The position numbers were made by a program, and so were the translations under genes. From an archaeon GW2011_AR15 (GTDB taxonomy: Archaea > Nanobdellota > Nanobdellia > Woesearchaeales > GW2011-AR15), in NCBI GenBank assembly GCA_000830295.1, contig CP010425.1, positions 960,001 to 1,024,000 on the forward strand: 64,000 bases of DNA, given 5' to 3'. A model generated the notes under the pieces. The model made no database searches. It was given only the letters and a program-made list of their open reading frames with translations, and was not told the origin of the DNA. Positions 53,188 through 55,066 of this stretch are shown in pieces (position 1 is the stretch's first letter; each line of letters begins with the position of its first letter).

Positions 53188-53619
53188 ATGCCCGGTTTTG
53201 AACAGTATAACACGGAAAGAGTAAAGACTTTTCTAAAATACCTTGTGCACGCTGCGGCAAAACATAAGCCTGAGAGAGCAGTAATCAGGGAATTGAGAGA
53301 GCAGCGGGAAGAAAGGCTTGTTCCGGCAATAAGGAAGAGGCCTGAGAGGCTCCATATACCTGGCAGTGCAGAAAGGCTTTCTGTAATAACAGATGAGAGA
53401 AAAGAAGAGCTTGAAGTGAAGATAAAGATGCACCACACAAGAAACAGGTTTCTTCCATACGAGCTAAGGCTGAAAAAACTAAAGAAGAGGTATGCAACAA
53501 TAAAGAGAAGAAAAATCTCCACCAAGGCTGATAAGAGAAGGCTGGAAGTGCTGAATAACAGGATAGAAAGATGCGAGAGCCTGCTGAAAGAATTAAAAGC
53601 CAATGCCCACGAATATTAA
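53188..53619 (+). CDS. Hypothetical highly basic coiled-coil protein
   Basis: 143 aa, R/K-rich; 1 bp after the upstream gene. Confidence 0.7.
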   Translation: MPGFEQYNTERVKTFLKYLVHAAAKHKPERAVIRELREQREERLVPAIRKRPERLHIPGSAERLSVITDERKEELEVKIKMHHTRNRFLPYELRLKKLKKRYATIKRRKISTKADKRRLEVLNNRIERCESLLKELKANAHEY

Positions 53620-53624
53620 CTACC

Positions 53625-53710
53625 TCAGATATCTCTTGCCATAAGAGTCTCTGTTTTAAGAAAACAGAGGACAAAACAAGTGGGTTTCGCTTCGCTCAAG
53701 CCCACAGAAA
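53625..53710 (-). repeat. Synonymously diverged duplicate of the histone 3' end plus 62-bp hairpin cassette
   Basis: 53625-53648 reads ACT CTT ATG GCA AGA GAT ATC TGA (TLMARDI*), versus the gene end ACA CTA ATG GCA AGG GAT ATC TAA. The spacer has CTCTGTTTT-aag-AAAACAGAG and GTGGG-tTTCGCTTCGCTCaag-CCCAC hairpins. Confidence 0.85.
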
Positions 53711-53875
53711 TTAGATATCCCTTGCCATTAGTGTCCTTCTTCCGTTTGCAGTTGCCCTTTCAAGAGCCTTCTTTATGACGCTCTCGACTTTCACATTGAG
53801 TGCAGGGTAAAACTCTTCTGAGATATTAACGTCCCCTACAATCTGCTTTATCTGGGCTTTTGTTACCAGGTACAT
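53711..53875 (-). CDS. Short histone-fold protein (DUF1931-like; 54 aa; not in ORF track)
   Basis: MYLVTKAQIKQIVGDVNISEEFYPALNVKVESVIKKALERATANGRRTLMARDI, with the RA..NGRRT...D histone L2/a3 motif; SD GAGGTG upstream. Confidence 0.9.
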   Translation of the reverse strand: MYLVTKAQIKQIVGDVNISEEFYPALNVKVESVIKKALERATANGRRTLMARDI

Positions 53876-53884
53876 ATGACCACC

Positions 53885-55066
53885 TCACATTTCTATGAAC
53901 TTGGGTTCATTATTAATTCTTAATAATTTCCTAACCATCAGTATCCACAGCGGGCTTAGGAGCAGCGCCATGCATATAACTGAAATAATGAGCTTGTAGC
54001 CGGATTCCTCTATGAATCCTATGCTGTAGCCCGCAGTGCCGAGGAGGAAACTGAACTCTCCTATCTGTGCAAGCAGCGCGCCCGCATAAATGCTTTCCTT
54101 CCTGCTGTTGCCAAGCATCATAAGGATAACTGTATTGATAATATTGTTTGTAACAAAGACAGCCAGGGTTATGAGCCCGATGATGAGGAAGTTGCTGAAA
54201 AGGAAAGATAAATCAAATATGAGCCCAATGTAGATGAAAAAAACAGCGACAAACAGGGCCCTGAAAGGCTCAAGGTTTTTCACGACCCAATGAGTTACCC
54301 TGGACTCTGCAACCAGGATTCCTGCAAGAAAGGCTCCCAGGGCAGCAGAAAGCTGAAAAAACAGGGCTATTGAGGCAAGGCCAAAGCATAGGATAATTGC
54401 AGCAAAAATCTGGAGATCATAGTCTTTTTCCAGCTTTCCGACAAGAACATTCATGACTTTTTTTCTTCTGATAAACATGGCGACTATGAAAGTCAATACT
54501 ACCATAATTGTACCTATTATGCTTAGCTGGAAATTCCCAGTTTTTCCCTGTCCGGACATAAAGTTCAGCAGTATAAGCATCGGAACAATCAGCAGGTCCT
54601 GGATAAGCAGTATGCTCAGCACGTTCTGTCCGACTGCAGTAGAGAGCTCGTTCCAGCTTTCAAGCAGCTTCATGGCAACTGCCGTGCTGCTTATGCTTAT
54701 AACAAAGCCGACCAGGAGAATCCTCTGGAAGCTCCAGTCAAAAAAACTGCCCACAAAAAATACAGCCAGCACGCTTAGGATTATCTGGGAAATCGTCCCG
54801 AAAACAGCAACCTTCCAGCTGGAGATAATCTTTGAGATGGAGATCTCCATGCCAATAAAAAACAGAAGAAGGATTATGCCTATCTCTGCTGTAAGGTCAA
54901 CAAACGGAGTCTTCTCCAGCATAGAAAAGCCAAAGGGACCTATTATCATCCCGGCAATGATATAGCCTATTACATAAGGCTGCTTTATGTAATTCATGAG
55001 CAGGGTGATAACAAAGACAATAAGCGCGGCAAATACGCCAAAAAGTAGGAATTCTGATACTGCCAT
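53885..55066 (-). CDS. CPA2 cation:proton antiporter (Kef-like, no KTN domain)
   Basis: GYIIAGMIIGP, LLFFIGME, SSTA, LLIQD, LGAFLAG and LAQIGEFSF motifs. Confidence 0.92.
   Translation of the reverse strand: MAVSEFLLFGVFAALIVFVITLLMNYIKQPYVIGYIIAGMIIGPFGFSMLEKTPFVDLTAEIGIILLLFFIGMEISISKIISSWKVAVFGTISQIILSVLAVFFVGSFFDWSFQRILLVGFVISISSTAVAMKLLESWNELSTAVGQNVLSILLIQDLLIVPMLILLNFMSGQGKTGNFQLSIIGTIMVVLTFIVAMFIRRKKVMNVLVGKLEKDYDLQIFAAIILCFGLASIALFFQLSAALGAFLAGILVAESRVTHWVVKNLEPFRALFVAVFFIYIGLIFDLSFLFSNFLIIGLITLAVFVTNNIINTVILMMLGNSRKESIYAGALLAQIGEFSFLLGTAGYSIGFIEESGYKLIISVICMALLLSPLWILMVRKLLRINNEPKFIEM

Follow-up and report, generated by a model that had tools for sequence, protein, structure and literature searches.

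In the archaeon GW2011_AR15, a gene for a small histone-fold protein is followed by a 62-bp insert that folds into two hairpins and then by a second, synonymously respelled copy of the gene's own last eight codons. We analyzed this arrangement in a 64,000-nucleotide stretch of the genome (contig CP010425.1, positions 960,001 to 1,024,000), called the window below; positions are numbered within it unless they are given as genome positions. Our best reading is that the insert belongs to a family of small mobile cassettes, made of two hairpins and encoding no protein, that occur in a DPANN lineage, and we hold, with confidence a little above even, that such a cassette is nonautonomous, travels with a spare gene end, and is moved by an enzyme acting in trans. 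It would have inserted at the 3′ end of the histone-fold gene and brought a spare version of that end along; the gene is now completed by one of the two ends, while the other persists as a displaced, untranslated relic beside hairpin 1. The evidence comes from a multi-copy family with a uniform polarity, empty sites in related genomes, an orthologous insert in a second organism, covariation in a hairpin stem, and a coding type of divergence between the copies of the gene end.

The duplicated end of the histone-fold gene

The target gene is a 54-amino-acid open reading frame (ORF) on the minus strand (positions 53711 to 53875), complete with its own stop codon, TAA, and ending TLMARDI*. Its last seven codons and stop, the inner copy (positions 53711 to 53734, minus strand), are spelled ACA CTA ATG GCA AGG GAT ATC TAA. 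The outer copy (positions 53625 to 53648, minus strand), which is untranslated, gives TLMARDI* in a second spelling, ACT CTT ATG GCA AGA GAT ATC TGA, with the stop codon TGA. The two copies are identical at 20 of 24 bases, with a longest identical run of 8 nt, and all four differences (ACA/ACT, CTA/CTT, AGG/AGA, and TAA/TGA) are silent. By a hand count, 17 of the 72 single-base changes possible in these eight codons are silent, so that four silent changes out of four have a probability of about 0.003. A degenerate 24-mer covering both spellings matched exactly twice in the window, at positions 53625 to 53648 and 53711 to 53734, the expected number from 100 dinucleotide shuffles being none, and a repeat search recovered a 23-nt direct repeat, 87% identical, with a spacing of 86 nt. 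The repeat, pattern, and fold analyses together confirmed what a sequence-only reading of the window had described, namely, a duplicated end with 20/24 identity, silent differences throughout, and 62 bp of two hairpins in between.

The cassette occupies the 62 bp between the two copies (positions 53649 to 53710). None of 200 shuffles folded as well as its plus strand (z = -3.56), and 2 of 200 folded as well as its minus strand (z = -2.54). Starting from the outer copy, which it adjoins, hairpin 1 (positions 53649 to 53669; 9-bp stem and 3-nt loop) is the conserved core of the family and matched R1, a covariance model built from hairpin 1 and the linker, at E 1.5e-8. The linker (positions 53670 to 53679), ending AAAACA on the plus strand, is conserved in A1, an alignment of 17 copies of hairpin 1 and the linker. 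It is followed by hairpin 2 (type A; positions 53680 to 53705), a variable module whose type A form recurs at four other places in the genome, and by a 5-nt tail that leads to the gene's stop codon (positions 53706 to 53710). In A1, six of the nine stem pairs of hairpin 1 change on both sides and 91.5% of the cells are paired; the covariation score was reached by 0 of 500 shuffles, and slid controls scored far lower. The stem thus covaries while its apex and the linker stay constant. Hairpin 2, on the other hand, occurs in several unrelated types across the family, which indicates that the cassette is a modular unit. Both hairpins are internal, and neither end of the cassette is an inverted repeat of the other, so that terminal inverted repeats are absent. 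Minimum-energy folds of eight loci in both orientations gave only the two hairpins, and nothing in Rfam 15 matched at E ≤ 0.01 over the 3.3-kb histone locus.

We fetched 30 loci with the histone protein, that of GW2011_AR15 included, and identified the histone ORF in 27 relatives. None of the 29 relatives' histone loci matched the cassette profiles, only the locus of GW2011_AR15 itself doing so, and none of the 27 relatives had a duplicate gene end: the closest sequence downstream differed from the final 24 nt at 8 to 13 positions. Where relatives keep the convergent 143-amino-acid gene as the immediate neighbor of the histone gene, the two stop codons lie 0 to 11 nt apart, whereas in GW2011_AR15 they lie 91 nt apart, which is 5 plus 86. 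The 86 bp made up of the cassette and the second copy are therefore an insertion, as the sequence-only reading had supposed. A tandem second histone paralog, which would have explained the outer copy by simple decay, was looked for in the same 27 relatives and was not found. An assembly artifact also fails to account for the arrangement: a 920-nt contig from an independent sequencing run spans positions 53300 to 53980 without any difference, and contigs from four runs over positions 53300 to 54200, which are short and may share one campaign, showed only two single-base differences elsewhere.

A metagenome scan added eight histone loci, one of which carries the same insert. This locus, L120, lies on a metagenome contig of another organism, whose histone is 94% identical at the amino acid level, and it has the insert at the same place and in the same orientation: the same 5-nt tail, a hairpin 2 with a decayed stem, the linker, an intact hairpin 1, and an outer copy reading KLMARNI*. 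Identity between GW2011_AR15 and L120 was 115/141 in the coding sequence without the last eight codons, 20/24 in the inner copy, 51/63 in the cassette, and 17/24 in the outer copy. The third codon positions of the two histone genes differ at 25 of 55 and their fourfold sites at 7 of 20; set against these silent-site differences, a cassette identity of 51/63 means that the cassette is no more diverged, and perhaps less so, than the silent sites of its host gene. At three sites, both copies within an organism share a lineage-specific base (GCA/GCA in GW2011_AR15 versus GCC/GCC in L120, ATC/ATC versus ATT/ATT, and C versus T as the first base of leucine), while AGG/AGA and TAA/TGA separate the inner from the outer copy in both organisms. 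From these bases, we read the histone insertion as probably old or repeatedly renewed, with exchange between the copies, a history that would not fully explain the interleaving.

Another of the metagenome loci, L124 (histone 72% identical at the amino acid level), has a closely similar two-hairpin cassette at its positions 1666 to 1730, in the same spacer between the histone and the convergent gene but in the opposite orientation. There, hairpin 1 adjoins the histone stop codon and no end is duplicated; the L124 cassette appears to be an independent, "bare" insertion. L120 also has, at its positions 1752 to 1850, approximately 100 extra nucleotides with two other long hairpins between the outer copy and the convergent gene, which may represent a further insert of another kind that became stacked at the histone site. 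The other six metagenome loci had nothing comparable.

As for the gene itself, solved histone-fold proteins in the PDB matched the 54-amino-acid protein at E 1.3e-8 to 3.6e-5, and the profiles Pfam CBFD_NFYB_HMF (E 0.0085, 16.8 bits, under the 21.4-bit cut-off) and NCBIfam archaea_histone (E 0.0044) matched it under their cut-offs. The name "histone" used in the sequence-only reading therefore seems fair, though its profile support is weak. The histone-fold gene was present in 54 of the 61 genomes searched, GW2011_AR15 included. Its convergent neighbor (positions 53188 to 53619, plus strand) encodes a 143-amino-acid protein of no known family, with no Pfam or NCBIfam match; homologues of it were found downstream of the histone gene in relatives, and its stop codon lies 5 nt from the outer copy, the two together marking the native downstream flank.

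Apart from a 26-amino-acid read-in, the 62-bp cassette contains no ORF. The read-in is a minus-strand ORF (positions 53625 to 53705) that starts with GTG in hairpin 2, crosses hairpin 1, and takes in the outer copy, so that it too finishes with TLMARDI*; nothing points to its translation. Read in the histone sense, the hairpin and T-rich linker may serve as the gene's 3′ untranslated end or terminator, a suggestion that we make with low confidence. Positions 53605 to 53618, the last codons of the convergent gene, match positions 53700 to 53713, the 3′ strand of hairpin 2 and the tail, at 11 of 14 bases. We considered whether the histone repeat extends into the convergent gene in this way and set the idea aside; since the C-terminal tail of the convergent gene varies among relatives and looks ordinary, the match may be chance or a microhomology used at insertion.

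A cassette family at the ends of tRNA and protein genes

A census of the single-contig, 1.158-Mb genome, which combined a profile search, a scan for flanking repeats, and ARAGORN, found 19 copies with R1 at E < 0.01. Sixteen of them sit between direct repeats of a gene end, 12 to 57 nt long: eight at tRNA 3′ ends (seven tRNA genes, one with two tandem cassettes), four at the starts of protein genes (GroEL-like, DnaK, pilin-like, and Nop10), and four at the ends of protein genes (AspRS/AsnRS-like, an unknown gene, Pth2, and the histone gene). The three copies with no repeat are two tRNA introns, in tRNA-Gly(CCC) at the canonical position and in tRNA-Thr(UGU), and one copy in antisense orientation inside the RNase P RNA gene (RF00373, 98.7 bits). 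Because the same family also occupies the ends of tRNA genes and either end of protein genes and supplies tRNA introns, the insertion site is not specific to histone, and the proposal that the histone gene is a dedicated att site is not borne out. The related suggestion of a minimal nonautonomous element mobilized in trans fits a family of at least 19 copies that have no ORF and lie mostly between gene-end repeats.

The layout common to the family runs from the gene end through hairpin 2, the linker, and hairpin 1 to a second copy of that end. Its polarity is strict, the complete gene standing on the hairpin 2 side in 16 of the 16 repeat-flanked genome copies, and the partial copy mostly adjoins hairpin 1, from which it is separated by -6 to +10 nt at most loci with flanking repeats. 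At the 3′ ends of genes, the cassette is antisense to the gene. The flanking repeats include the gene terminus, together with the oligo-T run at tRNA genes, where this run follows the first copy, and with the ribosome-binding site at DnaK and GroEL. Units may also be stacked: the tRNA gene at genome position 594584 has two cassettes and three ends, and the pilin-like gene has three starts. At Pth2, enolase, and the gene at genome position 863844, the repeats have identical cores of 21 to 42 nt with diverged arms, and the DnaK copies are identical over 39 nt.

R1 also matched in 31 of 60 related genomes, which comprised 18 of 19 in the same family and 13 of 41 in other families of the order. 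We examined 40 cassette loci from five relatives, with 42 hairpin 1 matches, and found flanking repeats scoring at least 12 at 22 of them. Sixteen of these 22 had a nameable tRNA or ORF, and in all 16 the gene was on the hairpin 2 side. The targets in relatives included an enolase start (in genome G009), pilin-like starts, and the orthologue, in genome G004 (locus L068), of the GW2011_AR15 gene at 863844. For five of seven further relatives' loci, in silico removal of the segment beginning at the foot of hairpin 1 gave an ARAGORN tRNA with the junction 11 to 20 nt from the 3′ end; as judged from these predictions, the cassette at the five loci is a T-loop intron in sense orientation. A stricter cassette motif gave six matches in three records among genome contigs and was too strict for a census. 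One of the three records is titled Candidatus Woesearchaeota and the other two, which belong to close relatives, "uncultured Methanosarcinales archaeon"; the Methanosarcinales labels look doubtful.

The RNase P RNA gene (genome positions 561703 to 562045) holds its antisense cassette with hairpin 1 at 561756 to 561789 and without a flanking repeat, which looks like an insertion tolerated within a structured RNA. In the pilin-like gene (genome positions 635420 to 635640), the first 7 to 12 codons are present in three copies; the first pair of copies encloses a cassette of the family, the second a hairpin insert that is unrelated to it. At genome positions 594584 to 594667, the ARAGORN call was "tRNA-Phe(aaa)" with an intron of 12 nt, although the gene is better taken by eye as tRNA-Thr(CGU), and at 179899 to 179984 it was a "tRNA-Stop(tta)"; anticodon calls on these intron-rich tRNA genes look unreliable.

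Coding history of the copies and origin of the insert

Protein genes are informative where tRNA genes cannot be, in that the two copies of an end differ mainly at synonymous sites. We compared the copies codon by codon within the homologous block at 15 protein loci (eight from GW2011_AR15, six from relatives, and L120). Thirty of the 140 codons differed, 23 synonymously and 7 nonsynonymously. Random single-base changes would give an expected synonymous fraction of 0.198 (P = 3e-11), and even with one copy neutral and the other constrained the expected fraction would be 0.33 (P = 1.3e-6); at the GW2011_AR15 loci alone, 11 differences were synonymous and 1 was nonsynonymous. The 19-codon repeat at the enolase start of G009 showed seven synonymous differences, among them a TCT/AGT serine switch and CGC/AGA, and one conservative nonsynonymous difference. 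At Pth2, the repeats keep the frame and stop over about 20 codons while the tails differ at about half of their bases (GITSELKLM* and KITGSLKLI* in GW2011_AR15; EITSDLKLV* and KVTSELKLV* in genome G003), and the outer tails of both genomes resemble tails that are used as real gene ends in other genomes.

The excess of synonymous changes, 23 against 7, indicates a coding history for both copies. Such a pattern would not be expected of a neutral relic formed on the spot, whereas two alleles that had each once been a real gene end would produce it; by our reasoning rather than by computation, gene conversion between the copies would not give a synonymous excess either. The use of both copies as working gene ends speaks for exchange between related genomes and against local copying errors. 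The synonymous bias over the 15 loci also agrees with the analogy, drawn in the sequence-only reading, to elements that bring a replacement gene end. Which copy is native is harder to say: the synonymous sites of the 24-nt histone repeat are saturated, so that codon comparison with relatives is uninformative there, and the same comparison was ambiguous for Pth2.

We therefore favor a nonautonomous mobile cassette. Its mobile unit would consist of the cassette plus one copy of the gene end, and we infer that this unit spreads between related genomes by recombination within the homologous gene end, through either site-specific integration or double-strand-break repair of a kind that replaces the end and leaves a relic, with the enzyme supplied in trans. 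A family with many copies, sites that are empty in kin, a strict polarity, the stacking of units, the predominance of synonymous differences, and the decay of relics seen in L120 and at locus L057 all follow from such a route.

Several observations weigh against it. The contigs of the four sequencing runs revealed no joint, gap, or empty or island-bearing allele of GW2011_AR15 at positions 53300 to 54200, so that movement is deduced from comparison and was not observed. An identical run of 8 nt within the 24-nt repeat is short for homologous recombination. Judging from the sequences, the interleaved bases shared by GW2011_AR15 and L120 would need repeated exchange between copies and are not neatly predicted by a single integration. 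The bare copies, namely the two tRNA introns, the RNase P RNA copy, and L124, show that a repeat is not obligatory for insertion, and some of the copies differ nonsynonymously (two differences at L057, two in the outer copy of L120, and several in the Pth2 tails). In addition, a screen of the GW2011_AR15 genome for eight enzyme families gave no match for reverse transcriptase (RVT_1), Cas1 (PF01867), GIY-YIG, Y1 transposase (Y1_Tnp), the TnpB zinc-ribbon domain, HNH, Piwi, or the IS110 DEDD domain, with LAGLIDADG, HUH Rep, serine recombinases, and other nuclease families lying outside the screen. The only recombinases found were a 319-amino-acid tyrosine recombinase and a 165-amino-acid, fragment-like look-alike. 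The former scored about equally for archaeal XerA and integron integrase (IntI), under the curated cut-off in both cases, and the nearest tyrosine recombinase to the histone locus is about 140 kb away on the chromosome. Nor does the favored route explain which enzyme acts, how new target specificities arise, or why the shared bases are interleaved. As a separate observation, the Nop10 cassette (genome positions 1152658 to 1154396) lies about 1.2 kb from the 319-amino-acid protein, the only full-length tyrosine recombinase, which may be a coincidence.

The tRNA introns within the family invite a more specific proposal, which we regard as rather unlikely, that the cassettes are archaeal tRNA-type introns caught in the act of spreading at the level of DNA. 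On reaching a gene end, a cassette would bring a spare copy of that end and so leave the gene intact, and later loss of the redundant copy beside hairpin 2 would leave a true intron. This route predicts the polarity that was observed, that is, a partial gene copy next to hairpin 1 and the complete gene next to hairpin 2, and it matches the finding that the sense-oriented anticodon-loop and T-loop introns of the family start at the foot of hairpin 1.

Among the explanations that do without a mobile unit, we give a low but real probability to duplication in situ, in which an error of replication or repair (template switching or the filling of a staggered break) copied the cassette in and duplicated 24 nt of the target, gene ends being involved only because the spacers of a compact genome are a few bases long. 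The 0- to 11-nt spacer between the histone gene and an immediately neighboring convergent gene suits this account, as do repeat lengths that vary from 12 to 57 nt, unlike the fixed stagger of a transposase, and the lack of a mobilizing enzyme in the families searched. It could also draw on the 11/14 match between the cassette end with its tail and the native flank, and on the outer copies being closer to their own genes than to the outer copy in the other genome, both for GW2011_AR15 versus L120 and for the gene at 863844 versus G004 L068. A neutral copy, however, should gain mostly nonsynonymous changes, against the 23-to-7 ratio and its P of 1.3e-6 under one-copy neutrality; multistep synonymous switches such as those in the enolase repeat are equally hard to obtain in this way, and random errors would not yield a strict polarity with hairpin 1 mostly adjoining the outer copy. 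Quite unlikely, in our judgment, is a guide-like cassette, in which, on the strand of the cassette itself, the 12 to 57 nt matching a gene end in every repeat-flanked copy, followed 5′ to 3′ by hairpin 1, the linker, and hairpin 2, would form the guide and scaffold of an RNA-guided nuclease or recombinase supplied in trans and steer it to cassette-free alleles. The uniform polarity with the gene-end copy mostly close to hairpin 1, the covarying stem with its constant apex and linker, and stacked units that resemble a repeat-spacer series would all be expected of it, but the genome has no candidate effector among Cas1, TnpB zinc-ribbon, HNH, Piwi, and IS110 DEDD proteins, the length of the "guide" is not fixed, and DnaK copies identical over 39 nt leave no obvious distinction of self from nonself.

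An element acting at the RNA level seems improbable as well. Here the insert would be an intron or processing module of the splicing endonuclease, recognized by a bulge-helix-bulge, and the outer copy would be an alternative exon end giving the same protein either way. This would explain a coding constraint on both copies, and family members are real tRNA introns, in tRNA-Gly(CCC) and tRNA-Thr(UGU) and, by the ARAGORN result, at five of seven relatives' loci. Yet no bulge-helix-bulge motif was found in register, the best in-register score rising above every one of the 40 off-register controls in just 4 of 60 locus-orientations, with the histone locus not among them; the cassette is antisense to the gene at 3′ ends and stands after an oligo-T run at tRNA loci; and the histone ORF is complete without splicing, with its own stop codon upstream of the cassette. 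The sequence-only reading had also offered the insert as the scar of a larger, integrase-bearing island in the histone gene that lost its interior, and gene-end direct repeats with silent differences do look like the attL and attR of such islands, as with e14 and phage 21 in icd. We consider this very improbable, for the same hairpin-linker-hairpin junction would have to have been left behind at about 20 loci; the unit lies between repeats at 16 loci of GW2011_AR15 and 22 loci of relatives, no large insert was found at the histone site in the relatives' 29 loci or the eight metagenome loci, none of the latter holding an integrase-bearing allele, and two cassette motifs gave 0 matches in viral contigs. 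The chance that the pattern reflects accidental similarity, decay of a tandem histone paralog, or misassembly is close to nil, given that no pattern match is expected in shuffles, that the 27 relatives have no second histone copy downstream, and that an independent contig and a second organism share the layout.

How small structured inserts, archaeal tRNA introns included, enter genes without destroying them is an open question. The present family indicates that hairpin cassettes enter not only tRNA genes but also essential protein genes, namely those for a histone-like protein, chaperones, a tRNA synthetase, and Nop10, each time in the company of a spare gene end. A trans-acting enzyme, if there is one, works on a hairpin unit of about 60 nt and accepts arbitrary gene ends, a form of targeting that would be new. 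If the intron-gain proposal is true, it offers a concrete and testable route by which archaeal introns are gained, one that also acts on protein-coding genes such as that for histone. For annotation, the odd short ORFs and "partial tRNA" calls of these genomes can be traced to such cassettes and relic ends.

Relation to known mobile elements and introns

We found no description of such cassettes in the titles and abstracts screened, and several known systems resemble them in part. In icd of Escherichia coli, e14 and phage 21 exemplify elements of the prophage type that integrate at the 3′ end of a protein gene. As in the present case, the element side brings a replacement end with silent differences and the displaced end remains as a repeat on the far side; however, those elements are tens of kilobases long with an integrase of their own, whereas the cassette is 62 bp without a gene, and the same unit recurs here at many different gene ends, both 5′ and 3′. 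An integrative element of the integrase type is thus matched in the gene-end direct repeat and in the empty site of relatives, but not in an integrase within the element. Cis-mobilizable elements (CIMEs) lack an integrase, are flanked by att sites, and accrete in tandem at tRNA genes. They share with the cassettes a nonautonomous unit bounded by repeats of the target end and a tandem stacking, but they are kilobases long and need a known co-resident integrative element, none of which was found here. Miniature inverted-repeat transposable elements are likewise small, multi-copy, and protein-less, with insertions that differ between relatives, while the present cassettes have no terminal inverted repeats and are flanked by 12 to 57 nt of functional gene ends rather than by short, fixed target-site duplications. 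Integration of the casposon or Cas1 type finds no counterpart in this genome, where PF01867 had no match to indicate a Cas1-family integrase.

Mobile tRNA introns are known in archaea, in which "intron transposition" has been recognized in Thermoproteales. The likeness lies in related short structured sequences at different positions of different tRNA genes, and members of the present family are themselves tRNA introns. The sequence relationship to tRNA introns expected of a bulge-helix-bulge intron is therefore present, while at the histone locus there is neither an interruption of the gene nor a splice motif. The descriptions of mobile introns considered here mention neither duplicated gene ends nor protein genes as targets, nor an insert lying antisense at the 3′ end, and a 2026 preprint states that the route by which archaeal tRNA introns arrive remains open (10.64898/2026.10.13.758758).

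Two further systems link an inserted element to a leftover gene end. At the tRNA-Thr locus of Caldiarchaeum subterraneum, a mobile element beside the tRNA gene leaves a tRNA fragment and has been linked to intron gain (PMC3293823); with a length of 1.8 kb and a recombinase gene of its own, that element is unlike the cassettes, which have about 60 nt and no gene. In the yeast aldolase gene FBA1, each integration of a WHO element replaces the 3′ end, and relic ends and old elements stack downstream (PMC7282813). The replacement end, the relic end, and the stacking have close parallels here in the tRNA gene with three ends and the pilin-like gene with three starts; the WHO elements are eukaryotic and encode their own endonuclease, while the cassettes are noncoding and the GW2011_AR15 genome had no GIY-YIG or HNH match in a search that did not extend to LAGLIDADG. 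The cassette thus differs from the icd prophages, the WHO elements, and the Caldiarchaeum element in being a gene-less unit of about 60 nt that is related to tRNA introns and occurs at many gene ends, 5′ as well as 3′.

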